The position numbers and the translations under genes are program-made. DNA of 64,000 nucleotides from Caldilineae bacterium (GTDB lineage Bacteria; Chloroflexota; Anaerolineae; DTLA01), in contig JBBIHX010000003.1 of NCBI GenBank assembly GCA_037446815.1, forward strand, positions 291-64,290, given 5' to 3'. Positions 14,336 through 52,687 of the stretch are shown here, one piece after another. Every line of letters begins with the position of its first letter. Positions within the stretch are counted from its first letter, which is position 1. Below the pieces are notes generated by a model. It saw only the letters and a program-made list of their open reading frames with translations. It was not told where the DNA came from and ran no database searches.

Positions 14336-14352
14336 GGAGCAAAGCACGGTGC

Positions 14353-14390: not shown

Positions 14391-14426
14391 ATGCAGCAGT
14401 GCCAATCTCTTCTACGGAGGTGCGCC

Positions 14427-25018: not shown

Positions 25019-25078
25019 GCGTATAGTTCTAGTAGACTATAACTATAGACCTTGCGCACAAGAGCGAGGAGAATCCCG

Positions 25079-25750: not shown

Positions 25751-25756
25751 TGTGCG

Positions 25757-26713: not shown

Positions 26714-26734
26714 CGCGAACTGAGGTAGAGGACT

Positions 26735-36166: not shown

Positions 36167-36195
36167 TTGACGGAAAATGAGACTAGGGTTATAAT
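36167..36195 (+). promoter_or_regulatory. Sigma70-type promoter (TTGACG-17 nt-TATAAT) of the signalling supercluster
   Basis: TTGACG at 36167-36172 and TATAAT at 36190-36195, 67 nt upstream of ATG 36262. Confidence 0.6.
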
Positions 36196-36261: not shown

Positions 36262-37074
36262 ATGGCCCTTAAGGGAAACCTGAAGGATTTCGGCGTTGCC
36301 CAACTGCTGAACCTGATTCACATCGCCCGCAAGACAGGTGCCCTCTCTGTCCGCAGCAATGGATTGTCGGCCACGCTGTATTTCCGCGAGGGGAAGTTGC
36401 TCGGCGCGTACCAGGATAGCCGCGACGACAGCCTTCTGGCCCTGCTCCAGCGCGCCGGCAAGATCACGCCCCAACAGGCGGAGAGCATCTTGTCCCGCGC
36501 CGAGACGCGCACCGACAAGGAGGTCGGCCTCCTTCTCCTCCACAACAACTACGTAACGCAGAAGGACATCCTCCAGGTGGTGCGGGCGGCGGCGCTGGAG
36601 ACCGTGTACGCCATCTTCGCCCTCACCGATGGCACCTTCCAGTTTGATCCCAATCGGATGCTCCCCCAAGAGAAAATCGGCGTTCCCATTGACCTGGACA
36701 ACGTCATCATGGAAGGGACGCGGCGGATGAAGGAATGGGAGCAGTTGCAGGCCGAGTTGCCCGACCTGGACGTGGCCCTGAAGTTCACCGACAGGCCTGG
36801 GACTTCCCTGAAGAACATCAGCCTGAGCGTGGAAGAGTGGCGGGTCATCTCCTTCATCAGCCCGCGCAACACCATTCGCCAAATCGCCCAGTATATCGGC
36901 CTGAGCGAGTTCCAGATTCGCAAAATCGTGTACGGTCTCCTGACGGCGGGCTTGGTGGAACTGGTGCGGCCCGAGGGCGCGCTGCCCCCTGGCCTACCGG
37001 GTCTTCCGCCGTCGCCAGCGGTCAAGCGGGGGGTGATCTTGCGCTTGATTGACAAAATTCGCCGCATCAGCTGA
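36262..37074 (+). CDS. DUF4388-domain protein (MglA-associated regulatory partner type)
   Basis: The N-terminal MALKGNLKDFGVAQLLNLIHIARKTGALSV...YFREGKLLGAY is the DUF4388 signature by eye. The Pro/Gly-rich C-terminal tail begins 18 nt upstream of the GTPase gene. Confidence 0.7.
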   Translation: MALKGNLKDFGVAQLLNLIHIARKTGALSVRSNGLSATLYFREGKLLGAYQDSRDDSLLALLQRAGKITPQQAESILSRAETRTDKEVGLLLLHNNYVTQKDILQVVRAAALETVYAIFALTDGTFQFDPNRMLPQEKIGVPIDLDNVIMEGTRRMKEWEQLQAELPDLDVALKFTDRPGTSLKNISLSVEEWRVISFISPRNTIRQIAQYIGLSEFQIRKIVYGLLTAGLVELVRPEGALPPGLPGLPPSPAVKRGVILRLIDKIRRIS

Positions 37075-37091
37075 CTCGGAGGAACTGCGGA

Positions 37092-37628
37092 ATGCAAGCG
37101 GTCAAAATGGTTATCACGGGCCCATTCAACGCGGGCAAGACGGAGTTCATCAAGACCATCAGCGAGATTGACGTTGTCTCCACCGAGCGGCGAATTTCCG
37201 ATGAGACGCGCGCCACAAAGGAAGAGACCACCGTTGCCATGGACTTCGGGCGCATCACCATTGACGAAGACCTGGTGCTTTTCCTGTTCGGCACGCCCGG
37301 GCAGAAGCGGTTTGATTTCATGTGGGAAATCCTATCCGAGGGGATGCTGGGGTTTATCGTGCTGGTGGACTCGGTGCGGCCCGAGACCTTCCGCGAGGCG
37401 CGCCGCATCTTGGATGTGTTCCGAACCTACGCGCCCGCGCCCTACGTGGTGGCGGCCAACAAGCAGGACCTGCCCGATGCCTGGAGCCCCCAGGACATCC
37501 GCATCGCCCTGCGCGTGGATCCAGGCGTCAAGGTCGTCCCGTGCGTTTCAACCGACAAAGAGAGCGTGAAGAGCGTCCTGCTGGAACTCCTGTACACGAT
37601 TCTGGAGAACTCCAAGGACGAGGAATAG
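37092..37628 (+). CDS. MglA-like small Ras-superfamily GTPase (178 aa)
   Basis: P-loop GPFNAGKT. The switch-II motif FGTPGQ is the TxxGQ variant (Thr replaces the canonical Asp), which is diagnostic of the MglA group. NKxD is present as ANKQD. GGAGG RBS. Confidence 0.8.
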   Translation: MQAVKMVITGPFNAGKTEFIKTISEIDVVSTERRISDETRATKEETTVAMDFGRITIDEDLVLFLFGTPGQKRFDFMWEILSEGMLGFIVLVDSVRPETFREARRILDVFRTYAPAPYVVAANKQDLPDAWSPQDIRIALRVDPGVKVVPCVSTDKESVKSVLLELLYTILENSKDEE

Positions 37629-37643
37629 CGAGGGGCCAACAGG

Positions 37644-38435
37644 TTGGGTTCCATCGTAACACGCCAAGGGATCGTGCATTATGAGACCCAAGGGAGCGGC
37701 CCGCCGGTCATCCTGTTGCATGGGTGGCTTGGCTCCTGGGGGTATTGGCTGGATACGATGGAGGCACTATCCGACGCCTTTCGCACGTATGCGCTGGACT
37801 TTTGGGGGTTTGGGGAGTCGGGCAAGCCGCGCAGCGGCTACGAAGTGGACGACTTCGTGAACCTGGTGGATCAGTTCATGGACCGCCTGGGGATACCGGC
37901 GGCTCCCGTGGTCGGGCACTCCATGGGCGGCACGGTCGCCCTGAAGTTGGCCATGGAGCGCCCCGAGCGGGTTACCAAGGTGGCGGTTGTCGGCTCGCCT
38001 ATCAACGGGCGTTCGTTGAGTTTGCCGTTGCGTTTGGCCGGGCGCAAGCCGGTGGCGTATCTCGTGTGGCACATGCCCGGGATGCTGCGATGGGGCATTC
38101 GGACCTTCTCGCCGCGGCTGGCCCACGACTGGCGCAAGTGGTACGACATGATTATGCACGACCTGTCGCGCACGACGCTGGAGGCCTTTCTGTCCAGCAT
38201 TCGGTCGCTGCGCCGGACGGATCTAACGCCCAGGCTGGGCGAGGTGCAGGTGCCGGTGTTGGGGTTCTACGGCCAGCGGGACCTCATCGTGGACCCGCGG
38301 CAGGGGGGCGTGCTGCTGCGCGGCGCGCCCAAGGCCGATTTGGCCAGGCTGGAGCACTGCGGCCACTTTCCGATGCTGGACGATCCGGCCCTGTTCAACA
38401 GCCGGTTGAGGCAGTTCTTGACCACATCGCATTGA
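37644..38435 (+). CDS. Alpha/beta-hydrolase fold protein (paralog A)
   Basis: HGWLGSW oxyanion region and a GHSMGG nucleophile elbow. Paralogous by eye to 51908..52687 (same N-terminal IVHYETQGSG/IIHYETLGRG, LHGWLGSW.YW). Confidence 0.75.
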   Translation: MGSIVTRQGIVHYETQGSGPPVILLHGWLGSWGYWLDTMEALSDAFRTYALDFWGFGESGKPRSGYEVDDFVNLVDQFMDRLGIPAAPVVGHSMGGTVALKLAMERPERVTKVAVVGSPINGRSLSLPLRLAGRKPVAYLVWHMPGMLRWGIRTFSPRLAHDWRKWYDMIMHDLSRTTLEAFLSSIRSLRRTDLTPRLGEVQVPVLGFYGQRDLIVDPRQGGVLLRGAPKADLARLEHCGHFPMLDDPALFNSRLRQFLTTSH

Positions 38436-38483
38436 CGGCAAGCACGGCGCTATTCGACGGTTCATCCTTTTCTCGGAGGACTC

Positions 38484-39206
38484 ATGGACGAGGAAAAAGA
38501 CATTCACCAGGAGCAGCACGGTCAGGAGGAGCAGCACGCTCACGAAGAGCCGCATGAGCACGGCGAGCATGAGCACGGCGAAGTGGCCCAGCCTCGGTAC
38601 TACTACGGCAACAAGATGGCACGCATCTACCTGCTGGCGCTGGAAGATGTGCTGGGCAAGAACGGCGTGAACGCTTTGCTCAACCTGGCGAAACTGAAGC
38701 ATCTCATCAACAACTACCCGCCCAACAACTTTGAGCGCGAGTTCCCGTTTGAGGACTTCGCGGCGCTGAACCAGGCGCTGGACGACGTGTACGGGCCGCG
38801 CGGCGGCCGGGGCCTGGGCACGCGAGGGGGCCGCGCCACGTTCAAGTACGTGCTCAAAGAATACGGCGCCATGTTGGGCATCAGCGACCTGGCCATGCGC
38901 CTCATGCCGCTGGGCATGAAACTGCGGCTGGGCCTCGGCGTGATGGCTGAGACCTTCAACCGCTCCAGCGACCAGGTGGTGCGCCTGGAAGAGGACAACG
39001 AGCACTTCTACTATCACATCGTTCGCTGCCCGGTGTGCTGGGGCCGCAAGTCGCAGACGCCGATATGCTACGTGGCGCTGGGCCTGTTGCAGGAGAGCCT
39101 CGCGTGGGTAACTGGCGGCAAGAACATGTCCGTTGTGGAGACGACCTGCATCGCCAAGGGCGACCCCACGTGCTGTTTCGTGATTGATAAGAAACCGTTG
39201 GATTAG
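38484..39206 (+). CDS. V4R-domain protein with a His-rich acidic N-terminal tail
   Basis: The C-terminal half carries the V4R cysteine pattern (CPVCWG...C...GDPTCCF). The N-terminal region HQEQHGQEEQHAHEEPHEHGEHEHGE is a candidate metal-binding tail. Confidence 0.7.
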   Translation: MDEEKDIHQEQHGQEEQHAHEEPHEHGEHEHGEVAQPRYYYGNKMARIYLLALEDVLGKNGVNALLNLAKLKHLINNYPPNNFEREFPFEDFAALNQALDDVYGPRGGRGLGTRGGRATFKYVLKEYGAMLGISDLAMRLMPLGMKLRLGLGVMAETFNRSSDQVVRLEEDNEHFYYHIVRCPVCWGRKSQTPICYVALGLLQESLAWVTGGKNMSVVETTCIAKGDPTCCFVIDKKPLD

Positions 39207-39409
39207 GCGGGGGAGAGCACGGGCAGATTGCGGCGCGGGATTCGGGGCCGCCCGCCGACGCGGCTCCGAGCCGTCCCGCTAGAAGCGCATCCTAGGCCGG
39301 GCGAGGTACCCCCCAGCCCGCCGGTCGGCCGAGGGCTTCCCGTGCCTCGCCCGGACGTGCGGGGAGGGGCGCGCAACACGGTGGGCGATCCGGAGGGTGC
39401 CAGAGGGCC

Positions 39410-40660
39410 ATGATACGGATAGTCATTCGGGATCGGACCAAGATACCCCCGTTCAACGAGCCTGCGCGCGATTTGCGCGTGCTCAATAAGCCCCTGTGGC
39501 TGCACCAGCGCGACGTGCTGGCGCGGTACTGCCTCACCGAGGTGGAAGTGGAAGTCGGCGACCCGCTGCCGCCCATCCGTGAAGAATGCCTGGTCTATCG
39601 CGACAACCTCTTCTTTGACGAGGACTTCATCCACGAGTTCTTGCGGTTGGCCAGGGCGCGGCGAAGGCCCTGTCAGGTGGCCTTCTCCCCCGACGACAAG
39701 GCCATCGTCGTTCACGCCCTCCCGCTCCAGGACAACATCCGCCTGCAAGGCGACGTGTATGTGGCCGACCTGTGGTACTACCCCAGCGGCCCCACCGACG
39801 AACCGCCGGAGCCGGTGGTGGTGGACACTATGGCGCAGGAAATCGGGTACTACCACATCCCCACCTACATGGCCTCGGAGAAGGGGGAACTGGTCTTCTG
39901 GGTTCCCTTGCGGCCGTTCCTGGCGATAGAGAACTGGGTGCATGTGTTCATGGCCAATTCGCCCTTTGGCATCTTCAGCATGGGGGCGAAGATGGAGCAC
40001 GAGGTGGCGCGCTTTTCCAAGGCGGCCCGCGTGCTGTTGCGTTCGCTGCTGGAGCGGCGGCAGTTCCTGTCGTCGTCGCGGATGATCCGCGTGGGGCGCA
40101 ACGTGCAGATAGACCCCACGGCCATCATCCAGGGGCCGGCCATCATCGGCGACAACACCACCATCGGCCCGGGCGCGGTGGTTACCAACTCCATCATCGG
40201 CAGCAACGTCAACGTCATGCAGGGATGCCAGGTGATGCTCAGCGTCGTCAGCGATGGGTGCTATCTCCCCTTCCGCGCGGCGCTGTTCATGACGACGCTC
40301 ATGGAGAATTCCATGGTGGCGCAGAATGCCACGCTGCAACTGTGCGTCGTCGGGCGGCATTCGTTTGTGGGGGCCAACACGGTCTTCACGGATTTCAATC
40401 TGCTGGGCAAGCCGCTGCGCACTATGCACAAAGGCCAGCCGCAGCCTGTGGGCTTGCCCGTTCTGGGCGGGTGCGTCGGACACAACTGTCGCATCGGCGC
40501 GGGGATGGTCATCTATCCGGCGCGCACCATTGAGTCGGATACGGTTCTCATCCGCGCCGAGGGCCGCGGCGTCATTTCGGACAACGTGCTGTTTGAGCAA
40601 AGCGACCACGTGCGGTTAGGAGAGGAGAGCCTGCATCCGCAGAAGTACACAAGGGGGTAG
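39410..40660 (+). CDS. Left-handed beta-helix (hexapeptide-repeat) protein with a unique N-terminal domain
   Basis: The C-terminal half has imperfect hexapeptide repeats (IIGDNTTIGPGAVVTNSIIGSNVNVMQGCQV..., VVGRHSFVGANTVF, CVGHNCRIGAGMVI). The N-terminal about 200 aa lacks a GxGTRL nucleotidyltransferase motif. The stop is 1 nt before the next start. Confidence 0.6.
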   Translation: MIRIVIRDRTKIPPFNEPARDLRVLNKPLWLHQRDVLARYCLTEVEVEVGDPLPPIREECLVYRDNLFFDEDFIHEFLRLARARRRPCQVAFSPDDKAIVVHALPLQDNIRLQGDVYVADLWYYPSGPTDEPPEPVVVDTMAQEIGYYHIPTYMASEKGELVFWVPLRPFLAIENWVHVFMANSPFGIFSMGAKMEHEVARFSKAARVLLRSLLERRQFLSSSRMIRVGRNVQIDPTAIIQGPAIIGDNTTIGPGAVVTNSIIGSNVNVMQGCQVMLSVVSDGCYLPFRAALFMTTLMENSMVAQNATLQLCVVGRHSFVGANTVFTDFNLLGKPLRTMHKGQPQPVGLPVLGGCVGHNCRIGAGMVIYPARTIESDTVLIRAEGRGVISDNVLFEQSDHVRLGEESLHPQKYTRG

Positions 40661-40661
40661 T

Positions 40662-41714
40662 ATGGAACGTTTCGGCTTTATCCTACACCCTTTGGATGTG
40701 CGGAGAGATGTGGCAAAGCGCTTCGCGGTTCTCAGCATCTTGCCGCTACGGTGGCTGGATTTCCTGTCGGGATATTTCCCGCCGGTGTACCTGTCGCACG
40801 TTACTGGCATTCGGTCTGCACTGGGTGATGAGGCGGAGGGTTGGCTTGTGGCCTGCCCGCTCACGCCCAGGGCGATGACCCGGTTCCCGCTGAAGCGCGT
40901 CTATCGGCAGATCATCCGCGCCGGGCAACTGGCCGAGCGGCTCGGCGCGCGCATCATTGGGCTGGGCGCGCTGACCTCAGCCGTCGGCGACGCGGGGGAG
41001 ACGGTGGCGCAGGGCCTGAAGGCAGCGGTAACGACGGGCAACAGTTACACGGTGGGGGTTACCTGCGGCGCCGTGCGCGCCATTGCCCGCACCCTGGGCA
41101 AGCCGCTGGAGGAGTTGCGCGTGGCGGTGCTGGGCGGGACGGGGTCCATCGGCAGCGCGTGTGCGCGCCTGCTGTGCCGCAACGTGGGAGAGGTGCGCAT
41201 CGTGGGCCGCGACCCTGCAGCGGTGGAACGCCTGGTGCGTTCGCTGGAACCGGTGGCGTATCGGGAGGTATCCGGCACGACCGACCTGATGGCCCTACGG
41301 GACGCGGACGTCATCGTCAGCGCTACCAACTCGGCAGGGCCACTCATCCGTCCGGAGCACTTGCGCCCGGGCGTCGCGGTGTACGACCTGGCGTTGCCTC
41401 CCGACGTGTCGGCGGCGGTGCGCCAAATGGGGCTGGATGTGCAGGTCTATTCCGGCGGCGATGTCCTGGTGCCGGGGAAGCCGAACTTCGGGTTTGACTT
41501 CGGGCTACCGCCCGGCCATGCCTACGCCTGCATGGCCGAGACGATAGCCTTGGCCTTGGAGGGTCGGTACGAGAACTACACGCTGGGGCGAAGTATCGCC
41601 CCAGAGCAGGTGCTGAAGATTTGCGTCATCGCCGAGCGGCATGGGTTCCGCCCCGCGCCTTTGCGCGCCAGGGGCAGGACCGTGGAAGTGCCCTCGTGCG
41701 TGGAAGTGGTATAA
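40662..41714 (+). CDS. Acyl-ACP-reductase (AAR)-like NAD(P)-binding protein
   Basis: By-eye alignment to cyanobacterial AAR throughout: FGFILHPL~[16 protein letters not shown]~[32 protein letters not shown]~[36 protein letters not shown]~[20 protein letters not shown]~VRHGFQP. The catalytic Cys of the AAR 'EHC' motif is not obvious here. Confidence 0.65.
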   Translation: [350 protein letters not shown]

Positions 41715-41762
41715 TAGAAGCCGGCAGGTGCGCTTGTACGACAGGTGTTAGGGAGGATAGAT

Positions 41763-42674
41763 ATGCCGAAGGACAGGATTCTAATCGTAGAAGATGACCG
41801 CGACATCTCCAGTCTGCTCGCCTTCTACTTTGAGTCCCAGGGCTATGAGATTCTGGCGACCACGCACGGCAACGAGGCCCTGGAGATTTCGCGGCGCAAG
41901 TTGCCCAACCTGGTGATTCTGGATATCAAACTTCCGGACATTGACGGCTACGAGGTATGCCGCCGCCTGCGCACCAACCTGCGCACCAGCCACATCCCTA
42001 TCATCTTCCTAACCCAGAAGGACGAGCGGGCCGACCGCATCGCCGGCCTGCAACTGGGCGCCGACGACTACATCACCAAGCCCTTTGACATGGAGGAACT
42101 CCACCTGCGGGTGAAGAACGCCCTGCGCCGAGCCAGTTACGAGAACCTCACGAACCCGGTTACGGGCCTCCCCAGCGGGCGGCTGATAGAGGAGCAGTTG
42201 AAATCCCTCATCCAGCGCAACAACTGGACGGTGCTGTATATCGGCGTGTGCGGGTTGCGCGCGTTCAACGACTTGTACGGCTTCGTCGCGGCGGACGACG
42301 TGCTCCGCTTTGCGGCGATGGTGTTGGGCGAGACGATTGACGCCCTGGAAGGCGGCCAGGACTTCGTGGGCCACATCGGCGGCGGCGACTTCATCATCAT
42401 CACCACGCCCGACCGCGAGGCGGCCCTGCGCGAACGCATCACGGCGCGGTTCAACAGCGAGGTCAAGAGTTTCTACAACTTCAAAGACCGCGAGCGCGGC
42501 TACCTTCTCATCAAGGACGAGACGGGGCGAGAGAAAAAGGTGGCGCTCATGACGCTGGCCGTGGGAACGGTGCACGGAGGGGCCGGGCGGTTCAGCGACA
42601 TCCGCGAAATCACCGAGGTGGCCTCCGACGCGCGCCGCGCCGCCGCCATCGCCCAGTGCGGCGAGATCGGCTAG
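41763..42674 (+). CDS. Response regulator: REC domain + degenerate GGDEF-like domain (GGDF)
   Basis: REC: ILIVEDDRDI...LDIKLPDIDGYEV...DDYITKPF. C-terminal: NPVTGLPSGR...HIGGGDFIIIT, GGDEF-like with a degenerate GG(D/E)EF motif. GGGAGG RBS before ATG 41763. Confidence 0.75.
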   Translation: MPKDRILIVEDDRDISSLLAFYFESQGYEILATTHGNEALEISRRKLPNLVILDIKLPDIDGYEVCRRLRTNLRTSHIPIIFLTQKDERADRIAGLQLGADDYITKPFDMEELHLRVKNALRRASYENLTNPVTGLPSGRLIEEQLKSLIQRNNWTVLYIGVCGLRAFNDLYGFVAADDVLRFAAMVLGETIDALEGGQDFVGHIGGGDFIIITTPDREAALRERITARFNSEVKSFYNFKDRERGYLLIKDETGREKKVALMTLAVGTVHGGAGRFSDIREITEVASDARRAAAIAQCGEIG

Positions 42675-42709
42675 CGGCCCTCCGGAATCTCTAGAGGCGG
42701 GGTTAGGGT

Positions 42710-45700
42710 ATGAACGTTTCCAAGGGAAGATTGAGAGCGCAGCAGGTTGTCGCCTGGCTGTACTGGTTCGGATGGCTGTACGTGCTGATTTCCTCCCTCA
42801 CCAATCAAGGACGGGTCGGCCTGTGGGTCTTGGCTCTCCTGGCCGCGCAGTGGCTGGTGCTCCGCGTGGGCGCGGTTCGGGCTTTTCGCGCTCGTCATGC
42901 TCTGCTTGGACTTCTTGCCGTTGAGGTGCCATTTTCCATCGCGGTCTTCTATTTGACGGGCGGGCGTACCAGCCCCGCGTCCATCCTGGCCTACTTCCTC
43001 GTCGGCCTGGGCGCAGCGCACTTGCCGCTCGCGGCGCTGGCGGTGTACATCCTCGGCATCACCGTGGCGTTCCTGCTGCCTCTCGTGCCCCCGCTGTGGC
43101 CCGCGGGCGAACCCATCCGCTGGCAATACCTGGTAACGGGGCTGTTCAGTTACTACGCGCTGGGGTACATCGTCCGATACCTGGTGCAGGCCGAGGAGCG
43201 GGAGCGGGCCGAGCACCTGGAAAGCCAGGAGGTGCTGGCCGAGTCGCGCAGGCGCGTGAACGAACTCACCGCCCTACAGCGCATCAGCCGCCAACTCGGC
43301 AGCACGCTGGAACTGGACAAACTGCTGCCCATGATTGTGGAAGAGACGGTGGCCGCGACGCCGGCAACTCATGGCGCGCTGCTGCTGGTGGATGAGAACA
43401 CGGGCAAGTTGGCGCTGCGCGCGTCCTACGGGTACACGCCCGACCAGATCATGGCCTACAAGGAGTTGGACTTTGAGTCCACCAAGACCATCGTCGGGCG
43501 GGTGCGGGAGACGGGGCAACCGGCGCTCATTGCCGATGTGTCCCAGGACGCGGACTACTTCGCCCTCGTGCCGGAGACACGCTCCGAGGTGGCGGTGCCC
43601 ATCCGAATGGGCAACGTGGTGGTGGGCGTGCTGAACCTGGAGGCACGCACGCCCAATGCGTTCGCCGATGCCGATGTCCATTTCTTGGAGGCCATCGCCG
43701 ACCAGGCGGCGCTGGCGCTGGCCAACGCGCAATTGTACACGGCGACCGACAGGACCCTGGCGCGGCGCGTGGAAGAACTCGGCGCGATGAGCGAGATCAC
43801 GCGCGAGTTGGCCAGCACGCTGGACCTGCACCGCGTCCTGGACTTGCTCATCGGTCGCGCCATCCAGGCTACCGGCGCGACCTCGGCCCTGGCGGGCCTG
43901 TACGACCCCGAGACCGATACCCTGGAACTTCTCGCGCACCGGAATTATCCCACGCTCATCACCGCCGAGGGCACCGTGGAGCGGCCCGCGACGGGCGGCA
44001 TCACCCAGCGCGTGGTGCGAACCGGCAGGCCTGCCCTCGTGCCCGATGTTACCAAAGACCCCGACTACGTGCCGGCCCTGCCCGACACGCGCTCGCAGTT
44101 GACGGTGCCCATCCGCTACGAGAACCAGGTGCTGGGCGTGCTGAACTTGGAGAGCAACCGTCCGGCAGCGTTCACCCACGAGAACCTGGCGTTTGTGGAG
44201 AACCTGGCAAACCAGGCGGCGGTCGCGGTCCGAAACGCCCGCCTGTACGACCAGGAACTCCGCCGATTGCAGGAAATCTCGCTGCTGAACGAGGTGGGCC
44301 AGGCGATTTCGGGCAGCCTGGATTTGGAGTCCACCCTACAGACCATTCTGGAGAGCGCGCGCCGCCTGCTGGACTACTACGTGGCCGAAGTGAACCTGTG
44401 GGACGAAGACCAGGGCGTGATGGTAACGTGCGCGGCGGCGGGCGAATCGGGCTACCTGACCCAGGTGGGCACGACCTACACGCCGGAGCAGGGATACACC
44501 GGCTGGATCACCCGCAACCAGAAGCCTCTGTTCATCCCCGACACGCGGGCGCGGGCCGATGTGCAGCCGCGCGTGAGCCTGGAAGACACGCCCTACCGTT
44601 CCTACATGGGCGTGCCGCTGGTGAAGGGGCAGAAATTGGTGGGCACGCTGGAGATGGCCGCGGACCGCCCCAATGCGTTCTCGCAGCAGGACCTGCGCCT
44701 GCTCCAGGCCATCGCGGGCCAGGCCGCCGTCGCCATTGAGAACGCGCGCCTGTACGAGGAGACCCAGTCCAGGGTGGACGAGATGGCCGGCCTGTTCCAG
44801 ATTGCCGGCATCGTTACCTCCACGCTGGACATGGACCAGATGCTGCAGGAGACGCTGCGCAAGACCGCGGAGTTGCTCAAGGCCGAGAAGATGGCGCTCC
44901 TCCTGTACAACGAGACGACAGAGCGGCTGGAAGCGCGGGCCAGCGCCGTGGTGGGACTCCCGCCCGAGGAAGCGGAGATGCTCTCTATTGATGCACAGAC
45001 GCCCGATTTCGCCTACGGCGTCTTTCGCACGGGCCGACCGTTCCGTTCGTCGGATGCGCCCCACGACAAGCGCATCATCCCCGCCTACCGCCCGCTGATT
45101 GAGAAGTACGGGTTCCGTACGGTGCTGTCGGTGCCGCTGCGGACGCAAGACGTCATTCTGGGCGAACTGCACGCGGGGAACAAGCGCGATGGGGCCTTCT
45201 CCACCGAGGATGAGCGGCTTCTGGCGACGGTGGCCGCCCAACTGGCGGCGGGTATCCAGAATCTGCGGCTGTACCAGCGCACCGACGAGCAACTGCGGCA
45301 CCAGATTGACCAGATGACGGCCCTCCAGCGCATCACGCGCGAATTGAACGCCACGCTGGAACTGGAGCGCATCCTGGAGGTCGTGATCACCGAGGCCATT
45401 CGCGCCACCCGCGCCTCGCATGGCAACATCGCCCTGCTGGATGTGGAGAGTGGCACGTTCCACATCGCGGCGTACAAGGGGTACTCGGCGGAAGAAGAGG
45501 CTATCCTCCAGAAGATGACCCTGGGCAGCGGGAACAGCATCGCCGAGGATGCCATCCGCGCCGCCAAGTCCATCATCGTGGCCGACGCCCGCAAGGAGAC
45601 CCGCCCCGTCTGCATTCGCAAGGGCACCCTGTCCGCCGTGGCCGTGCCCATCCTGTACGAGGGGGCGGTCGCCGGCGTCATCAGCCTGCGGGCGATGGAG

Positions 45701-48700
45701 GTGCAGGCCTTTGACGAGGACACGGTGAGGTTCCTGGAGGCGCTGGCCAACCAGGCGGGCGTGGCCATCGGCAACGCATGGCGGTACCAGGAGCAGGTGC
45801 GCCTGGGGGCCAGCCTCAGCCGCCGCGCCGAGCAACTGCGCAGCCTCTTGGAGATCGGCAACGCGCTCCGCATGAACCTGTCGCTGGAAGAGGTGCTGGA
45901 CCAGATTGTCTACGCCATCCCCGAAACGACGGGGTTCAACCTGGCCCTGTTGAGCGTCGTGGAGGGTGATCCGCCGTACCTGCGGCGCGTGGCGGCGGCA
46001 GGGCTGCCCATCGCCGTCTTTGAGGAGATGCGCCGCGTGCGGCAGCCTTTGGAGCGGTTCACCCGCATCATGCGCGACGAGTACCGCATCAGCCAGTCCT
46101 ATTTCTTCCCGCACCAGAAGGCGCACGAGTGGCAAGAGGGGTTGCACGTATACACGCCGCCGGCGCCCGATGAGGAGTGGGAGCAAGGCCGCTGGCACCC
46201 CGAAGACATGCTCATCGTCCCGCTCCATTCGTCCTCCGGCGAGATTCTGGGCCTGCTGAGCGTGGATGAGCCGCGCGATGGTCGGGTGCCCACCCGCGCC
46301 GTGGTGGAGGCGCTGGAGATCTTCGCCAACCAGGCGGCCACGGCCATTGAGAACGCGCAACTGTACGAGAAGCAGTTGGCCCAGAGCCAACTGATGGCGC
46401 GCCGCGCCGAGCAACTCAGCAACCTGCTCAACTTCGGCAACGCCCTGAAGGCCGAGATGAGCCTGGAGCAGGTGTGCCGCGAGATCGCCGATGCCGCACA
46501 CACGCAGATGGGCTATCGCCTCGTGGCGTTGAACCTGATTGATGGCGACGATCCGTCGCTGGTGCGTGTGGTGGCGACGGCGGGGGTGGACGCGGAGACC
46601 ACAGCCGCGCCCTTCCCGCGTTCCGCGCTGGAGAGCCTGCTGGACGAGCGGTATCGTATCAGCCAGTCGTACCTTATCACGGGGGACGGCAAGGGCGCGC
46701 TGGAGGGGAGCGGGGCGCCGGTGTACGTGCCCGATTTGGGCGAGCGCGGGCCCGACGAGTGGCAACCCACCGACGCCCTCATCGTCCCGCTGACCGGCAG
46801 CAAGGGGCACATCGGCTACCTGTCGCTGGATGACCCCGTGAGCCGCCGCCGACCAGAGCCCGAAGACATCGCCGCGCTGGAGGTGTTCGCGAACCAGGCG
46901 GCCATCGGCATTGAGAACGCCATGCTGTACGAGAACGTTATCTCGCGCATGCGCGAAATCTCGGCCATGTACGACGTGAGCCGAGGGTTGGTGTCCACCC
47001 TGGACCCGGAGGAGATGCTGGAGGACGTGTTGAGCGCGCTCCGACAGTCGGCCGGGTACGACAACTGCGCGTTCCTTCTGCTGGACCCGGTTGCCGACGA
47101 CCTGGTGGTGCGCGCCGCCGTGGGGTACATGGAAGACATCAAGGGCCTGCGCATCCAGGTGGGGCGCGAGGGCATCACCGGCTGGGTCGCCGAGAACAAG
47201 CAGCCCCTCGTGGTGCCCGACGTTACGCAGGACGCCCGATACATCCAGAAGGACTCGCAGACCCGCTCGGAGATCGCCGTGCCCATGATGGTGGGCAATC
47301 GGCTCATCGGCGTGCTGGATGCCCAGAGCAGCGAATTGGACGCCTTCGGCGAGCGGGACTTGCGCATCCTGTCGGCGGTGGCAGCGCAGACGGCCGTGGC
47401 CACTGAGAACAGCCGCCTGTATGAGGAGACGCGCCGCCGCGCCACGCAGTTGGAGGCCACCAGCGAGGTGGGGCGACGCATCGCGTCCATCCTGGGCCTG
47501 GATGAACTCCTCTCCGAAGTGGTGGAACTGGTGCACGAGACCTTCAACTACGACCACGTGCACGTGTTCCTGATTGACCCGGATACGCAAGAGGCGGTGT
47601 ACCGCGCGGGCAACGGCTCGGTGGGCCGCGCCATTCGCGAAGAGGGGCTTCGGCTGAAAGTGGGCCAGGAAGGGATGATTGGCCATGCCGCCAGCACCCG
47701 CCAGCCCCTCATCGCCAACGACGTTGCCAAAGACCCCTTCTACGTGCCGCACCCGCTGCTGGCCGACACGCGCTCGGAATGCACCGTCCCGCTGGTCATC
47801 GGAGACCGCGTCATCGGCGTTCTGGACGTGCAGAGCCACGAGTTGGACGCTTTTGGCGACGACGACCTGTTCCTGCTCCAGACCTTCGGCGACCAGTTGG
47901 CCGTGGCCATTGAGAACGCGCGCCTGTTTGAGGAGTCGGAGCGGCGGATCCGTTCCCTGGCGGCGCTGAACCGCATGGGCCAGACAATCAGCTCCACGCT
48001 GGACCTGACGGCGCTCCTGGACGAGGCCTATCGCCAGATTTCGCAGGTCATTGACGCCTCCAATTTCTACATCGCCTTCTACGACGAGGAGCGCGACGAG
48101 GTATCCTTCCCGCTGGCCATTGAGGAGGGTGAGCGCGTAACGTGGCAAAGCCGCCGCGGGACGCGCAGCCTGACCGAGCATATCATCCGCACGCGGCAGC
48201 CGCTATTCCTGCCGGAGAACGTGGTGGAGGCGGCCACCGAAATCCTGGGCAACCCGCCGGTGGGCCGGGCCGCCCTGTCGTGGATGGGCGTGCCGATGAT
48301 TGTGGGCGAGAAGGTCATCGGCGTCATCGCCGTGCAGAGTTATGCCAAGGCTCGCGCCTATACGGAAGAGGACCTCAACGTGCTGCAAACCATCGCGGCG
48401 CAAGTGGCCACGGCGGTGCAGAACGCCCGCCTGTTCCAGGAGACGCGCCAGAGCGCCGAGGAGATGCGCCTGCTGTACGACCTGGGTGTGGCCCTCAGCG
48501 AGACGCTGGAACTGGACCGCGTGCTGACGCTCATCGCCGAGAGCGCGCTGCAACTGACCCACACGCAAATCGCCACGCTGTACATCAAGGGCCAGACGGG
48601 CGATGAACTGACCTTCAAGGTTGTCTCGGACCCGCCGGAGCTGGCCCAGGGGATTGAAGTACACAAGCCGCGCGCCAAGGGCCTGACGGCGCAGATTCTC

Positions 48701-51475
48701 AAATCGGGCAAGCCGCTTATCCTGGACGACATTGCGCAGGACGAGCGCGTCAGCCCGGTTATCAAAGAGATGGGCATCCAGTCCATGATGGGCGTGCCGG
48801 TGCAGGTGGAGGGGCAGACCATCGGGGTGCTGTTTGCAGGCTCTAGGGAGTCCCACCACTTCACCGATAGGGACGTGTCGCTGGTCAACTTCCTGGTGAA
48901 CCAGGCGTCGCGCGCCATCCGCAACGCCCAGTTGTACGAGGAAATCACGCGCCTGAACCTGGAACTGGAAGAGCGCGTGGAGCAGCGCACGCGCGAACTG
49001 GCCAAGGCCAACGAGGAACTCACCATTGAGCGCGACCGCACCGAGGCGCTGTACCGCATCGCGCGCGAGTTGAGCCAGACGCTGGACCTGAACCGCGTGA
49101 TGAGCCGCGCCCTGCAATTGCTGAAAGAGTCCATCGGCATGAAGCGGGGCTCCATCCTCCTGCTGGATCAGCAGACCGGCAAACTGGTGCACCGCGCGTC
49201 GCTGACGCGGGGCACGCTGGAGCAGGGCGAGGCATCGCGGGCGTTCAGCGTGGGCGTTGGGCTGGCCGGGTGGGTGCTCCAGCACCGCCAGGCGGCCATC
49301 GTCCCCGACGTAACGAAGGACGAGCGGTGGCTCGCGACGGCGGGCGAGGAGACCGTGCGGTCGGCGCTGTCGGTGCCGCTACAGGCGGGCGAGGACATCC
49401 TTGGCGTGCTGACCCTGGCCGACCCGCGCCCCGACTACTTCAGCGAGGCCCACCTGAAGATGGTAACCGCCGCGGCCACACAGATCGCCACCGCCATCGG
49501 CAACGCCGAACTGTATCGGCTGATTCAGGAGCAAGCGGACCGCCTGGGCGACATGCTGCGCATGCAGCAGACCGAAGCGTCCAAGACCCGCGCCATCCTG
49601 GAGGGCATCGCCGACGGCGTGGTGGTTACCGACACCGACGGGCGCATCATCCTGTTCAACGACGCCGCCGAGCGCATCCTAGGCGTGCCGCGCAATGTCG
49701 TCATGAACGAGAACGTGCATGCCCTGCCGGCTACCCTGTCGGCGGGGGCCGAGATGGCGGCGCGTGGCCTGGCCGCCGTGAGCCGCTGGGTCGGCGTCGC
49801 GACCCGTCAGCGGCCCCAGATGGAAGAGCGCTTCGCCGTGGGCAACAAGGTGGCCAGCGTGCGCGTGGCCCCCGTGATGATGGGCGACGAACTGCTGGGC
49901 ACGGTGGCCCTGTTCCGCGACATCTCCAAGGAGGTGGAGGCCGAGCGCGTCAAGAACGAGTTCATCTCCACCGTGTCCCACGAGTTGCGCACGCCCATGA
50001 CCTCCATCAAGGGTTACACCGACCTGCTGTTCATGCAGGCCGCGGGGCCCATCACCGACGCCCAGCGCAAGTTCCTGACCGTCATCAAGTCCAACGCCGA
50101 CCGCCTGGCCACGCTGGTAAATGACCTGTTGGACATCTCCCGTATTGAGACCGGCCGCATCCGCCTTGACCGCCAGCCTACCGACGCCGCCAAGGTGATC
50201 CAGGACGTGGTAACGGCGCTCAGCAAGCAGGCGGACGAGAAGCAACTGACGGTTACCACCCGGATCAAGTCGCCGCTGCCGCCGGTGTACGCCGACCGCG
50301 ACCGCCTGACCCAGATTCTGACCAACCTGGTGGACAACGCGTGCCGGTATACGCCTGCGGGCGGGAAGATCACCGTGTCGGCGCGGCGCGTTTCCGACAA
50401 GGTGCAGATTGACGTAACCGACACCGGCATCGGCATCTCGCCCGAAGACCAGAAGAAGGTCTTTGACCGCTTCTATCGGGCCGACCATCCCGTCGTCCAA
50501 GAGACCGGCGGCACCGGCCTGGGCCTGGCCATCGTCAAGTCGTTCGTGGAGATGCACGGTGGCACCATCTGGCTGAAGAGCGAGTTGGGCAAGGGTTCAA
50601 CGTTCAGTTTCACGATGCCCATCGCCGTGTTTGACCAGCCGCTCCCGCCGCGCGAGGAAGTAACGGAGGAGGCCGAACCCATCGGCGCGGGCAAGCGCAT
50701 CCTGGTGGTGGAAGACGAGCCGGACATCGCCAACCTGGTGGCCCATCACCTGCGCGAGGAAGGGTATGAGGTGAGCACGTGCGGGCGCGGCGATGAGGTC
50801 ATGGACATCGCCCTGCGCGAAAAGCCGCACCTCATCACCCTGGACATCCGCCTGCCGGGCAAGGACGGGTTTGAGGTGCTCGGCGAGTTGAAGGCCCACC
50901 CGGAAACGTCGGAAATTCCCGTCGTCATCCTGTCCATCGTGCCCGACCCCGACCGAGCCTACCGATTGGGCGCGGTGGACTACCTGGGCAAGCCGGTGGA
51001 CGAGAAGCGCCTTGTCAACACGATACACTCCATCCTGTTCGCCCACGACCTGGTGCTCATCTGCGACGACAATGAGGACACGCAGAAACTGCTGCGCGAG
51101 GTCCTGGAGCGCAACGGATTCGTGGCCCGGACTGTGTCGGACGGACGCCAGGTGCTGGCCGTCGCTGAGAAGGAGCGCCCCGGCCTCATCCTGCTGGACC
51201 TCAAGATGCCCGGCCTGGACGGGTATTCGGTGTTGGAGCAACTGAAGCAGAATCCGAACACCGCCGACATCCCGGTGATTGTGATGACGGCCAGCATTGC
51301 CGACGACAAGGTGAAGCGCGACCGCGCGCTGGCGCTTGGAGCCGCCAAGTTCATGACCAAGCCCTTCTCCATCCCCGATTTGGTGGAGGAGGTGCGCAAG
51401 GCGCTGGAGGCCAGGGCCAAGGCCAACGGCAAGGCGCAACGGGCCGACCGCGAGGCCGCCGCGAGCGCCGAGTAA
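42710..51475 (+). CDS. Giant membrane-anchored hybrid sensor histidine kinase (2921 aa): about 5 TM - 12 tandem GAF - PAS - HisKA - HATPase_c - REC - REC
   Basis: N-terminal hydrophobic region of about 170 aa. Twelve GAF units, each ending in an (E/Q)NA(R/Q)L(Y/F) helix and sharing a VPDVT(K/Q)D...TRSE.(A/T)VP...(V/I)(L/I)GVL core. PAS (ILEGIADGVVVTDTDGRIILFN), H-box (STVSHELRTPMTSIKGY), HATPase (LVDNACRYT...GTGLGLAIVK), then two REC domains (KRILVVEDEPDI...; LVLICDDNEDTQ...). Confidence 0.85.
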   Translation: MNVSKGRLRAQQVVAWLYWFGWLYVLISSLTNQGRVGLWVLALLAAQWLVLRVGAVRAFRARHALLGLLAVEVPFSIAVFYLTGGRTSPASILAYFLVGLGAAHLPLAALAVYILGITVAFLLPLVPPLWPAGEPIRWQYLVTGLFSYYALGYIVRYLVQAEERERAEHLESQEVLAESRRRVNELTALQRISRQLGSTLELDKLLPMIVEETVAATPATHGALLLVDENTGKLALRASYGYTPDQIMAYKELDFESTKTIVGRVRETGQPALIADVSQDADYFALVPETRSEVAVPIRMGNVVVGVLNLEARTPNAFADADVHFLEAIADQAALALANAQLYTATDRTLARRVEELGAMSEITRELASTLDLHRVLDLLIGRAIQATGATSALAGLYDPETDTLELLAHRNYPTLITAEGTVERPATGGITQRVVRTGRPALVPDVTKDPDYVPALPDTRSQLTVPIRYENQVLGVLNLESNRPAAFTHENLAFVENLANQAAVAVRNARLYDQELRRLQEISLLNEVGQAISGSLDLESTLQTILESARRLLDYYVAEVNLWDEDQGVMVTCAAAGESGYLTQVGTTYTPEQGYTGWITRNQKPLFIPDTRARADVQPRVSLEDTPYRSYMGVPLVKGQKLVGTLEMAADRPNAFSQQDLRLLQAIAGQAAVAIENARLYEETQSRVDEMAGLFQIAGIVTSTLDMDQMLQETLRKTAELLKAEKMALLLYNETTERLEARASAVVGLPPEEAEMLSIDAQTPDFAYGVFRTGRPFRSSDAPHDKRIIPAYRPLIEKYGFRTVLSVPLRTQDVILGELHAGNKRDGAFSTEDERLLATVAAQLAAGIQNLRLYQRTDEQLRHQIDQMTALQRITRELNATLELERILEVVITEAIRATRASHGNIALLDVESGTFHIAAYKGYSAEEEAILQKMTLGSGNSIAEDAIRAAKSIIVADARKETRPVCIRKGTLSAVAVPILYEGAVAGVISLRAMEVQAFDEDTVRFLEALANQAGVAIGNAWRYQEQVRLGASLSRRAEQLRSLLEIGNALRMNLSLEEVLDQIVYAIPETTGFNLALLSVVEGDPPYLRRVAAAGLPIAVFEEMRRVRQPLERFTRIMRDEYRISQSYFFPHQKAHEWQEGLHVYTPPAPDEEWEQGRWHPEDMLIVPLHSSSGEILGLLSVDEPRDGRVPTRAVVEALEIFANQAATAIENAQLYEKQLAQSQLMARRAEQLSNLLNFGNALKAEMSLEQVCREIADAAHTQMGYRLVALNLIDGDDPSLVRVVATAGVDAETTAAPFPRSALESLLDERYRISQSYLITGDGKGALEGSGAPVYVPDLGERGPDEWQPTDALIVPLTGSKGHIGYLSLDDPVSRRRPEPEDIAALEVFANQAAIGIENAMLYENVISRMREISAMYDVSRGLVSTLDPEEMLEDVLSALRQSAGYDNCAFLLLDPVADDLVVRAAVGYMEDIKGLRIQVGREGITGWVAENKQPLVVPDVTQDARYIQKDSQTRSEIAVPMMVGNRLIGVLDAQSSELDAFGERDLRILSAVAAQTAVATENSRLYEETRRRATQLEATSEVGRRIASILGLDELLSEVVELVHETFNYDHVHVFLIDPDTQEAVYRAGNGSVGRAIREEGLRLKVGQEGMIGHAASTRQPLIANDVAKDPFYVPHPLLADTRSECTVPLVIGDRVIGVLDVQSHELDAFGDDDLFLLQTFGDQLAVAIENARLFEESERRIRSLAALNRMGQTISSTLDLTALLDEAYRQISQVIDASNFYIAFYDEERDEVSFPLAIEEGERVTWQSRRGTRSLTEHIIRTRQPLFLPENVVEAATEILGNPPVGRAALSWMGVPMIVGEKVIGVIAVQSYAKARAYTEEDLNVLQTIAAQVATAVQNARLFQETRQSAEEMRLLYDLGVALSETLELDRVLTLIAESALQLTHTQIATLYIKGQTGDELTFKVVSDPPELAQGIEVHKPRAKGLTAQILKSGKPLILDDIAQDERVSPVIKEMGIQSMMGVPVQVEGQTIGVLFAGSRESHHFTDRDVSLVNFLVNQASRAIRNAQLYEEITRLNLELEERVEQRTRELAKANEELTIERDRTEALYRIARELSQTLDLNRVMSRALQLLKESIGMKRGSILLLDQQTGKLVHRASLTRGTLEQGEASRAFSVGVGLAGWVLQHRQAAIVPDVTKDERWLATAGEETVRSALSVPLQAGEDILGVLTLADPRPDYFSEAHLKMVTAAATQIATAIGNAELYRLIQEQADRLGDMLRMQQTEASKTRAILEGIADGVVVTDTDGRIILFNDAAERILGVPRNVVMNENVHALPATLSAGAEMAARGLAAVSRWVGVATRQRPQMEERFAVGNKVASVRVAPVMMGDELLGTVALFRDISKEVEAERVKNEFISTVSHELRTPMTSIKGYTDLLFMQAAGPITDAQRKFLTVIKSNADRLATLVNDLLDISRIETGRIRLDRQPTDAAKVIQDVVTALSKQADEKQLTVTTRIKSPLPPVYADRDRLTQILTNLVDNACRYTPAGGKITVSARRVSDKVQIDVTDTGIGISPEDQKKVFDRFYRADHPVVQETGGTGLGLAIVKSFVEMHGGTIWLKSELGKGSTFSFTMPIAVFDQPLPPREEVTEEAEPIGAGKRILVVEDEPDIANLVAHHLREEGYEVSTCGRGDEVMDIALREKPHLITLDIRLPGKDGFEVLGELKAHPETSEIPVVILSIVPDPDRAYRLGAVDYLGKPVDEKRLVNTIHSILFAHDLVLICDDNEDTQKLLREVLERNGFVARTVSDGRQVLAVAEKERPGLILLDLKMPGLDGYSVLEQLKQNPNTADIPVIVMTASIADDKVKRDRALALGAAKFMTKPFSIPDLVEEVRKALEARAKANGKAQRADREAAASAE

Positions 51476-51505
51476 AAACTTCTTCCCGGGGACTGGGTTA
51501 GGATT

Positions 51506-51883
51506 ATGCCAAAGATCGTTGTGGCGGAAGACGAGCGGGACATCTTGGAGTTGATTCGCTTTGTCTTGGAGTTCAACGGGTTTGAGGTCGTGACGGCGAG
51601 CAACGGGGAGGAAGCCGTCCAACAGGCGCTGGCGACCATGCCCGACTTGGTGCTGATGGACGTGCGCATGCCGCGCATGACCGGGCACCAGGCGTGCCAG
51701 GCGCTGAAAGCCAACCCCAAGACCCAAAATATCCCGGTGGTGTTCCTTTCCGCGCGCGGGCAGGAGGCCGACATCAAGCAGGGGCTTTCGCTCGGGGCGG
51801 CGGACTACATCCTCAAGCCCTTCTCGCCGGAGGAGTTGCCCAATCGGCTGCGGAACGTGTTGGCCGCGGCGGGAAGCAAATGA
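51506..51883 (+). CDS. Single-domain CheY-like response regulator
   Basis: A 125-aa protein: KIVVAEDERDI...DLVLMDVRMPRMTG...ADYILKPF. Located 30 nt after the kinase. Confidence 0.8.
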   Translation: MPKIVVAEDERDILELIRFVLEFNGFEVVTASNGEEAVQQALATMPDLVLMDVRMPRMTGHQACQALKANPKTQNIPVVFLSARGQEADIKQGLSLGAADYILKPFSPEELPNRLRNVLAAAGSK

Positions 51884-51907
51884 CATGCAGGCGGTCGGGG
51901 AGCGGCG

Positions 51908-52687
51908 ATGAGCGTCATCCTCATTGAGGAGCGAATCATCCACTACGAGACGCTGGGGCGAGGCAAGCCGCTGATCTTTCTGCACGGCTGGCTCGGCTCG
52001 TGGCGCTACTGGATGCACGCCATGGAGGCGCTCTCGGAGAACTACCGTACCCACGCTTTTGACCTGTGGGGATACGGCGACTCGGACAAGCAGGGCGGGC
52101 GCCATGATTTGGATTCCTACCTGCGCCTGCTGGAAGCCTTCATGGATCAGATGGGTATCCTGAAGGCGCCGCTGGTGGCGCACAGTCTGGGGGGCATCCT
52201 CGCCGTGCACTTCGCGGCGAAGCACCCGGATCGCGTGCCTCGGCTCGCGCTGGTGAGCACGCCCCTCACCGACGCGGGCCTCAATGCCGGCGCTATCCTC
52301 GGCAAGTCGGCCCTCGGCAAGTTCCAGCAGAAGCGGCAGATTACGCACGACATCGTGTGGCAGGACATTGCCCGCATCGCCCCGAAGGCCATTGACGAAA
52401 GCCTGGCCAGCCTGAAGAAGTTTGACCTTCGGCCCCTGCTCCAGCAGATGCAGATGCCCTCGCTCATCGTGTACGGGCGCAAGGACGGGCTGGTGGATCC
52501 CGGGCAGGCGGCCGGCCTGGAGGGCAACAACCCCCGGATGCGCGTCCTCACCATGCCCGACTCTCGGCACTTCCCCATGTTGGACGAGGTGAGCCGCTTC
52601 AATCGGCTGCTCATGGATTTCCTGGAAGTCGGGGAAGACTTGACCGAGTTGGACCTGAAGACGGAGTGGCGCCGCCGCACCCATTGA
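51908..52687 (+). CDS. Alpha/beta-hydrolase fold protein (paralog B)
   Basis: LHGWLGSWRYW, nucleophile elbow AHSLGG. Paralog of 37644..38435. Confidence 0.75.
   Translation: MSVILIEERIIHYETLGRGKPLIFLHGWLGSWRYWMHAMEALSENYRTHAFDLWGYGDSDKQGGRHDLDSYLRLLEAFMDQMGILKAPLVAHSLGGILAVHFAAKHPDRVPRLALVSTPLTDAGLNAGAILGKSALGKFQQKRQITHDIVWQDIARIAPKAIDESLASLKKFDLRPLLQQMQMPSLIVYGRKDGLVDPGQAAGLEGNNPRMRVLTMPDSRHFPMLDEVSRFNRLLMDFLEVGEDLTELDLKTEWRRRTH

Follow-up and report, generated by a model that had tools for sequence, protein, structure and literature searches.

We describe a small GTPase of the MglA family and the genes around it in a 64-kb stretch of DNA from a Caldilineae bacterium of the Chloroflexota (contig JBBIHX010000003.1, positions 291 to 64,290 of the forward strand; hereafter the window, with gene calls backed by G+C bias at third codon positions (GC3)). 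The GTPase gene directly follows a gene for a PATAN-domain (DUF4388/PatA_N) protein and lies two genes ahead of one for a V4R-domain protein, in a gene run that forms a single putative operon. The explanation that fits best, and to which we give slightly better than even confidence, is that the locus is the Anaerolineae version of a PATAN–MglA module (Group 5 of the MglA family), heading a conservon-like signalling operon, with an MglB-type roadblock protein acting in trans and the V4R protein serving as a sensor. Gene content, sequence motifs and synteny conserved among relatives carry this view.

A Group 5-type MglA GTPase

The GTPase motifs were read directly from the sequence: G1 GPFNAGKT (residues 10–17), T46/T47 in switch I, G3 GTPGQ (67–71) and G4 NKQD (123–126). 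Pfam returned ATP_bind_1 (4e-18), Arf (2e-9) and Ras (7e-7), and phmmer aligned residues 5–169 to Thermus thermophilus MglA (3T12, E = 6.7e-8). In this alignment LFGTPGQ of the GTPase stands opposite LYTVPGQ of MglA and T46-T47 opposite R-T, which puts Thr46 at the position of the intrinsic arginine finger. GTPGQ and the other motifs, including TTVAMDF, were invariant in 81 orthologues. An initial annotation of this DNA, made by a model from the sequence alone, had called a 178-aa GTPase with GTPGQ and an intact NKQD, assigned it to the MglA family and named an alignment error in the TxxGQ call as a possible refutation; the motifs and the family are borne out, and the 3T12 alignment together with the invariance of the motif rules out such an error.

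In the 2014 survey by Wuichet and Søgaard-Andersen (PMC4316618), MglA Groups 2–5 have lost the arginine finger of Group 1, carry Thr instead and share a common GTPGQ G3 motif; canonical [NT]KxD in G4 is kept in Groups 1, 4 and 5, and Group 5 includes Chloroflexi and has occasional PATAN neighbours. The window GTPase shows every mark of Groups 2–5 (Thr for the universal G3 Asp, GTPGQ, and Thr for the arginine finger) as well as those of Group 5 (the canonical G4 NKQD, a Chloroflexota host and an adjacent PATAN gene), and departs from canonical Group 1 MglA in having Thr46 for Arg and GTPGQ for TVPGQ. Because the motif set (Thr46, GTPGQ and NKQD) matches the published description, we place the GTPase in the MglA family as a Group 5 type, an assignment made by motifs and context.

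Conserved neighbours of the GTPase

A scan of species-representative genomes returned more than 580 relatives of the GTPase. The best 80 loci, all from Anaerolineae or Chloroflexota, were analysed; since they come from one class, counts over them are not phylogenetically independent. The GTPase is 72–99% identical across these 80 Anaerolineae species genomes, the nearest relative (L001) being 99% identical, and a PATAN gene lies immediately upstream of it in 76 of 77 related loci. Downstream genes were counted over the 63 well-covered loci, with at least 6 kb downstream of the GTPase. Among these, PATAN was found in 62, an alpha/beta-fold hydrolase downstream of the GTPase in 45, V4R in 44, a left-handed beta-helix (LbH) protein in 46, a reductase-like enzyme in 33 and a response regulator with receiver (REC) and GGDEF domains in 46. 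The hydrolase, V4R, LbH and reductase genes usually travel together, and homologues of a GAF-domain histidine kinase lie 3′ of the cluster in most related loci.

The survey of MglA-like and V4R genes in other genomes that the initial annotation had proposed thus finds them together in 44 of 63 loci, and it finds them in at least four arrangements: V4R after the hydrolase, directly after the GTPase (seven loci: L002, L004, L011, L037, L066, L069 and L073), convergent about 0.8 kb downstream, or about 3 kb upstream. As the linkage survives rearrangement, it argues for V4R being a non-random neighbour of the GTPase whose proximity is under selection, rather than for frozen synteny.

One locus, L079, has an 856-aa open reading frame (ORF; 8034–10601) between the GTPase and hydrolase genes; what looks by eye like a P-loop (GPGGIGKT), together with a C-terminal half rich in repeats, suggests an NTPase of the STAND type (signal transduction ATPases with numerous domains).

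Roadblock genes in related loci

An MglB gene is coupled to MglA, within four genes, in 390 of the 449 members surveyed in PMC4316618; because that survey itself lists 59 orphan MglA, a coupled MglB is typical rather than defining for the family. No such coupling exists in the window, and 19 of the 80 related loci show it. The survey tabulates Anaerolinea thermophila ANT_06780 as <MglA><PATAN>, 179 aa and without a coupled MglB, notes that the same genome has an orphan MglB (ANT_03760) at another site, and lists PATAN>MglA> without a coupled MglB for Chloroflexus, Roseiflexus and Herpetosiphon as well; other Group 5 systems are mostly MglB–PATAN–MglA triads. The Group 5 PATAN–MglA pair without an adjacent MglB is therefore a known arrangement, catalogued for Anaerolinea since 2014, and the window GTPase is not an unusual orphan. 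Relatives of the locus do carry a roadblock gene.

Of the 19 loci with a roadblock gene, 17 have one family and 2 more a divergent roadblock-like gene. The gene stands right after the GTPase or right before the V4R gene, and the roadblock–V4R pair is often followed by the REC-GGDEF gene. In L008, for example, the gene directly after the GTPase encodes a Roadblock/LC7 protein (Robl_LC7, 2.1e-19). A profile of the relatives' roadblock proteins matched 7f8m (2.6e-32), CvnB5 (3LEQ, 2.5e-9) and MglB (~0.01) in the PDB, and archaeal roadblock structures too. Their Asp-Gly pair, D31-G32, is invariant; a conserved Asp-Gly pair has been described for the MglBs of Groups 2–5 (PMC4316618). The divergent gene, after the GTPase in L010 (8657–9109) and L020 (1592–1978), encodes a protein ~23–25% identical to the main type that scores 18.9 bits against the Robl_LC7 cut-off of 23, so roadblock partners may escape standard annotation. 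Judged by gene order, roadblock genes are members of the PATAN–GTPase operon family.

A second sample, a metagenome scan seeded on the roadblock protein (80 loci), had V4R directly downstream of the roadblock gene in 26 of 61 loci and the GTPase directly upstream in 7 of 56. In both samples together, V4R comes directly after 42 of 98 roadblock genes, which marks the two as a genuine and recurrent pair. Triads of roadblock, V4R and REC-GGDEF genes also occur without the enzymes, in L029, L073 and L075 and in L087, L094, L100, L117, L122, L152 and others. In 25 of the 80 roadblock-seeded loci the roadblock gene is immediately followed by pyrG (CTP synthase), as in L089 (10001–10363), L105, L111, L135, L142 and L160; roadblock sequences cluster by gene context, and the pyrG-linked copies form a cluster of their own in a distance tree. 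Roadblock genes remote from the GTPase are thus common in these bacteria, which makes a trans-encoded partner plausible in the present genome by analogy.

Several observations weigh against a module that relies on both a roadblock partner and a V4R sensor. Pfam scans of the GC3-supported genes, all small ones included, gave no Robl_LC7 match in the 64-kb window, and the relatives' roadblock proteins, run by tblastn, hidden Markov model (HMM) and jackhmmer searches against all six-frame window ORFs of at least 50 aa, found nothing, in keeping with the earlier remark that no roadblock lies nearby; pyrG is not in the window either. There is no roadblock gene within ±8 kb in 61 of the 80 related loci, so that the module may often work without one. 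V4R, for its part, is absent from about 30% of the loci that keep the GTPase and is thus not obligatory.

V4R was present in 14 of 15 well-covered roadblock-bearing loci versus 30 of 48 without a roadblock (Fisher p = 0.026, a value that ignores shared ancestry). By this count V4R appears to accompany the roadblock rather than to substitute for it, the opposite of what a replacement GTPase-activating protein (GAP) or guanine nucleotide exchange factor (GEF) would predict. Such a replacement extends the suggestion of the initial annotation that the V4R protein is a plausible GEF- or GAP-like partner: with its Bet3/TRAPPC3-like fold, the protein would have stepped in for the missing MglB as GAP or GEF and would act directly on the GTPase. 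The window does hold V4R without a roadblock, the linkage to the GTPase recurs in several arrangements, with direct adjacency in the seven loci named above, and the fold is related to that of TRAPPC3 (E = 5.7e-4; PMC2253512). The two genes co-occur instead of excluding each other, however; GTPase loci without V4R exist; V4R varies far more in sequence than the GTPase does; and the best structural matches of V4R are ligand sensors. We therefore consider a substitution of MglB by V4R very unlikely.

The PATAN partner

The upstream neighbour matched PF14332 over residues 4–160, the full length of the model. Its AlphaFold2 (AF2) model (predicted local distance difference test (pLDDT) 84) has a beta-alpha-beta3 core interrupted by four helices (58–119), followed by a further strand, a long helix, a winged helix (~172–235) and a disordered tail; match and model together show the PATAN/DUF4388 domain with its alpha-helical insertion. 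The family profile hit a MarR-type winged helix-turn-helix (wHTH; 5.6e-4) and, very weakly, the PilB N-terminal domain (E = 0.47). Within the helical insertion, residues 61–107 (window 36442–36582, + strand) resemble an MshE-type cyclic di-GMP-binding motif below threshold (NCBIfam NF053729, E = 1.3e-3), a match that is not significant alone; with the PilB match, also from the insertion, it may point to binding of a nucleotide second messenger or to PilB mimicry.

Foldseek found no PDB structure for the PATAN–wHTH model at or below 1e-3. The top three matches were human GATOR1 chains (9o5a_C, 9o5d_C and 9v0j_B; E = 4–9e-3, probability 0.8–0.9, TM-score ~0.25, subunit unverified), and further chains of GATOR1 and the SEA complex ranked below them. 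The GATOR1 complex, built on longin domains, acts as a GAP for Rag GTPases. A hidden roadblock in the PATAN protein was rejected at the sequence level (hhalign of PATAN against the roadblock family, probability 0.2%). The likenesses to GATOR1, MarR, PilB and the MshE motif are leads, not findings.

These leads bear on a second alternative, in which the PATAN–wHTH protein is itself the regulator of the GTPase, as GAP, GEF or in the manner of a GDP-dissociation inhibitor (GDI), and the roadblock is dispensable in most Anaerolineae and truly lost here. Its adjacency to the GTPase in all but one of 77 loci, with a gap of 17 bp in the window, would suit this role, as would the 61 loci with no roadblock within ±8 kb, the recurrence of PATAN–MglA pairs without MglB in Chloroflexi and the weak structural lead to GATOR1 (best chain E = 4e-3, probability 0.89). 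That lead comes from Foldseek matches above 1e-3, with a TM-score of 0.25 and an unverified subunit, however, and hhalign speaks against a roadblock relationship; the MglB–PATAN–MglA triad is the prevailing form of Group 5 systems elsewhere, so PATAN normally coexists with MglB, and Anaerolinea keeps an orphan MglB. We judge a PATAN regulator that dispenses with the roadblock to be unlikely, while granting it a real share of probability.

A candidate sensor of the V4R fold

The V4R protein, whose ATG is preceded by a GGAGG Shine-Dalgarno sequence, passes the PF02830 gathering cut-off of 31 bits. The TIGR02019 model of BchJ covers residues 52–233 (E = 3e-6) at 27 bits against a cut-off of 74, and an identity as BchJ, the bacteriochlorophyll vinyl reductase, was rejected. 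The AF2 model, built with 64 homologues (pLDDT 87), is low in confidence only at the His-rich N terminus. Against the PDB its best Foldseek matches were H-NOX domains (E = 5e-6, target TM-score 0.70), next TRAPPC3 structures (E = 5.7e-4 to 3e-3), then the phenol-sensor domains of MopR, PoxR and DmpR (~1e-3) and the archaeal V4R protein MJ1460 (2oso, 3e-3). The relation of the V4R fold to Bet3 (PMC2253512), which the initial annotation had put forward, is upheld by the TRAPPC3 matches, though H-NOX sensors match better.

Five Cys residues (C182, C185, C195, C222 and C230) are invariant across the 64 homologues, and the model predicts the two-layer fold of the V4R/Bet3/H-NOX type with a Cys cluster. 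No invariant or near-invariant His was found among the same homologues; with no conserved haem-ligating His, the protein is not a haem H-NOX, and the likeness is one of fold only. V4R probably fits the Zn-stabilized V4R/TRAPPC3 type, with the Cys cluster as a putative Zn site like those in PoxR and Thor-TRAPPC3 (Tran et al., PMC10933270). Its nearest structures, as judged from the model, are ligand sensors. V4R identity drifts from 68% to 26% over loci in which the GTPase stays at 72–83%, which, while not decisive, suits a sensor that diversifies more than a catalytic partner that is conserved.

The gene also encodes (window 38505–38576, + strand) an acidic His-rich extension, HQEQHGQEEQHAHEEPHEHGEHEH, with 8 His at residues ~8–31. 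The His-rich stretch seen in the initial annotation is thus real, and it forms an N-terminal extension rather than the C-terminal tail described there. It was set aside as a conserved functional clue, since no relative but the near-identical L001 shares it with this species; it might bind metal.

A third alternative treats V4R, the hydrolases, the LbH protein and the reductase-like enzyme as an unrelated small-molecule or lipid cassette that shares the transcription unit, with V4R as a carrier of a hydrophobic ligand. In source databases the V4R family goes by 'predicted hydrocarbon binding protein' or '4-vinyl reductase'; the reductase-like enzyme is similar to acyl-ACP reductase and to the N-terminal domain of PigE; and the four genes usually travel together. 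V4R nevertheless follows the roadblock gene directly and precedes REC-GGDEF in triads that lack the enzymes, and in some loci it stands directly after the GTPase with no hydrolase. On balance a passenger cassette seems improbable.

Layout of the gene run

The same-strand run extends from the PATAN gene to a second hydrolase gene (36262–52687, + strand; Table 1), and its genes have the GC3 bias of real genes. Gaps between the first four genes are 17 bp (PATAN–GTPase), 15 bp (GTPase–hydrolase) and 48 bp (hydrolase–V4R); the DUF4388 flank and the V4R gene one gene downstream of the GTPase, both noted initially, are confirmed by PF14332 and PF02830. Upstream of the PATAN gene lies proS, on the opposite strand. 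Among the first four genes a promoter-like site was found only upstream of the PATAN gene, and it is the probable start of the operon. Rfam, at the gathering threshold, gave neither a riboswitch nor any other RNA within the leader of 650 bp, the sole Rfam match being a tRNA at 63679–63751 (− strand).

Table 1 Features of the PATAN–GTPase gene run in the window
Feature	Position	Strand	Basis
Promoter-like site TTGACG-17-TATAAT	36167..36195	+	11/12 consensus match only; ~65 bp upstream of PATAN gene
PATAN (DUF4388/PatA_N) protein, 270 aa	36262..37074	+	PF14332 1.8e-30
MglA-family Group-5-type small GTPase, 178 aa	37092..37628	+	Motifs, Pfam, 3T12 alignment
Alpha/beta-fold hydrolase, 263 aa	37644..38435	+	Abhydrolase_1 1.9e-34
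V4R-domain protein, 240 aa	38484..39206	+	PF02830 34.2 bits
Left-handed beta-helix (hexapeptide, LbH) protein, 416 aa	39410..40660	+	Hexapep 3.5e-15
Acyl-ACP/thioester-reductase-like NAD(P) enzyme, 350 aa	40662..41714	+	NCBIfam PigE N-terminal domain 1.5e-55, AcACP_reductase 5e-23
Response regulator with degenerate GGDEF domain	41745..42674	+	Response_reg 5e-31, GGDEF 8.6e-10
Hybrid histidine kinase, 2921 aa: 12 GAF, one PAS, HisKA, HATPase, two receiver domains	42710..51475	+	Domain scan
Single-domain response regulator	51506..51883	+	Response_reg 3.5e-30
Second alpha/beta hydrolase, closes the same-strand run	51908..52687	+	Abhydrolase_1 4.9e-33

The N-terminal half of the LbH protein has no family match, and both NCBIfam scores of the reductase-like enzyme are below the curated cut-offs. 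A motif survey showed that the GGDEF signature of the response regulator is GGGDF, and GGDNF, GGDDF, GGDSF or worse in orthologues; with so degenerate a signature the domain probably lacks diguanylate cyclase activity. The 12-GAF hybrid kinase is unusually large and is soluble. The second hydrolase is a paralogue of the one adjoining the GTPase; pairs of REC and hydrolase genes 3′ of the kinase also occur in L021, L037 and L066, and we infer that the second hydrolase belongs to the system.

Elsewhere in the window, a 993-aa RtcB RNA ligase (17592–20573, − strand) matches RtcB (8e-174) in two stretches split by an Intein_splicing match (1e-12), so that rtcB probably contains an intein. A nuo (NADH dehydrogenase) operon (80–15737, + strand) and a 4Fe-4S/NrfD/multihaem cytochrome c cluster (25052–28282, + strand) provide an ordinary respiratory context.

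Comparison with known systems

The closest known counterpart is ANT_06780 of Anaerolinea thermophila (Group 5), which shares phylum and class, length (178 versus 179 aa), Thr in G2 in place of the arginine finger, GTPGQ in G3, a canonical NKxD in G4, an adjacent PATAN gene and the lack of an MglB within four genes; orthology of the window GTPase to it is inferred from the published description. The 2014 survey recorded MglA, MglB and PATAN neighbours only, with no V4R terms in its text or supplements (PMC4316618), and the conserved extension by V4R, hydrolase, LbH, REC-GGDEF and GAF-kinase genes and the adjacency of roadblock and V4R are not in it.

With the Group 1 MglA/MglB polarity switch of Myxococcus xanthus and Thermus thermophilus the locus shares a Ras-like fold, Thr for the G3 Asp and, in its relatives, a counterpart of the roadblock-dimer GAP. 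Unlike Group 1 MglA, the window GTPase has T46 for Arg53 and GTPGQ rather than TVPGQ, its similarity to that group is weak (E = 6.7e-8), and there is neither an adjacent mglB nor any motility gene nearby at this locus.

The actinobacterial conservon comprises the CvnA kinase, the CvnB roadblock protein, the DUF742 protein CvnC and the GTPase CvnD, which belongs to MglA Group 2. Like the conservon, the present operon family encodes a finger-less MglA-family GTPase with a histidine kinase, a small wHTH-containing partner and, here in relatives, a roadblock protein whose profile hits CvnB5 (3LEQ, 2.5e-9). The differences are clear, however: G4 in the window is NKQD where Group 2 has NxFD, the kinase, a soluble 12-GAF hybrid, is not of the CvnA type, no cluster protein matched DUF742 in the Pfam scan, the gene order differs, and V4R and the enzymes are present. 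By analogy, the locus resembles a conservon in its logic, in which a small GTPase is tied into a histidine-kinase pathway, while the NxFD motif, DUF742 and CvnA-type kinase that mark conservon membership are all missing.

Bet3/TRAPPC3 and longin subunits make up the core of TRAPP, the GEF for Ypt1/Rab1. In relatives of the locus the gene for a protein of the V4R/Bet3 fold is linked with those for a roadblock protein and a small GTPase, and roadblock is structurally akin to longin (PMC3747258). One could envisage, for Anaerolineae, a regulatory platform in which dimers of roadblock and of V4R (Bet3 fold) are physically joined to control the Group 5 MglA GTPase, as a bacterial counterpart of the TRAPP core; in genomes like the present one, V4R would continue to act on the GTPase together with PATAN or with a trans-encoded roadblock. 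We hold such a platform to be doubtful. H-NOX and phenol-sensor V4R domains match the window V4R as well as TRAPPC3 or better, any relation to TRAPP is one of fold only, and this window lacks the roadblock gene. The window V4R shares the Pfam V4R domain with the sensor domains of MopR, PoxR and DmpR and with MJ1460 and BchJ, and its Cys cluster resembles the Zn site of PoxR and Thor-TRAPPC3 (PMC10933270). Unlike MopR, PoxR and DmpR, the window V4R stands alone, with no AAA+ fusion, and has its species-specific His-rich N terminus.

Discussion

We suggest that the Anaerolineae PATAN–MglA module works as follows. The GTPase would be a GTP/GDP switch that, having no intrinsic arginine finger (Thr46) while keeping the catalytic Gln71, needs partner proteins for fast hydrolysis. 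The PATAN–wHTH protein would bind the GTPase directly, as regulator or effector. A roadblock dimer of the MglB type would serve as the GAP-type partner and, in this genome, is most likely encoded elsewhere, because this is so in Anaerolinea thermophila and because many related roadblock genes lie beside pyrG or in roadblock–V4R–REC-GGDEF triads. V4R would be a small-molecule sensor stabilized by its Cys cluster, probably through Zn; its ligand, and here we guess, might be a hydrophobic compound that the nearby hydrolase, reductase and LbH enzymes produce or alter. Acting with the roadblock protein, with the branch formed by the degenerate REC-GGDEF protein and the GAF kinase, or with both, V4R would feed its signal into the switch and would not replace MglB.

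Beyond the literature searched goes the class-wide, rearrangement-resistant linkage of the GTPase module with V4R, the enzymes and the GAF-kinase/REC-GGDEF pathway. A search of the literature with the terms V4R, roadblock, MglA, DUF4388 and vinyl reductase found no earlier report of a V4R/roadblock/GTPase linkage, and the roadblock–V4R link appears unreported. The three-way linkage is drawn from gene neighbourhoods in a single bacterial class, the window itself being without the roadblock member. A 2013 review described prokaryotic V4R proteins as having no clear function, and a 2024 study noted that the GTPase genes of Asgard archaea as a rule do not share an operon with genes for roadblock, longin or TRAPPC3 proteins.

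Should V4R do no more than sense a ligand for the kinase branch, this would be a routine signalling operon. If the platform reading is true, it would provide the first functional link of a prokaryotic V4R protein to a small GTPase. A bacterial operon that unites V4R, roadblock and GTPase raises the question of whether proteins of the V4R/Bet3 fold worked with small GTPases outside or before eukaryotes, and with it the question of how a finger-less MglA-type GTPase is switched off.

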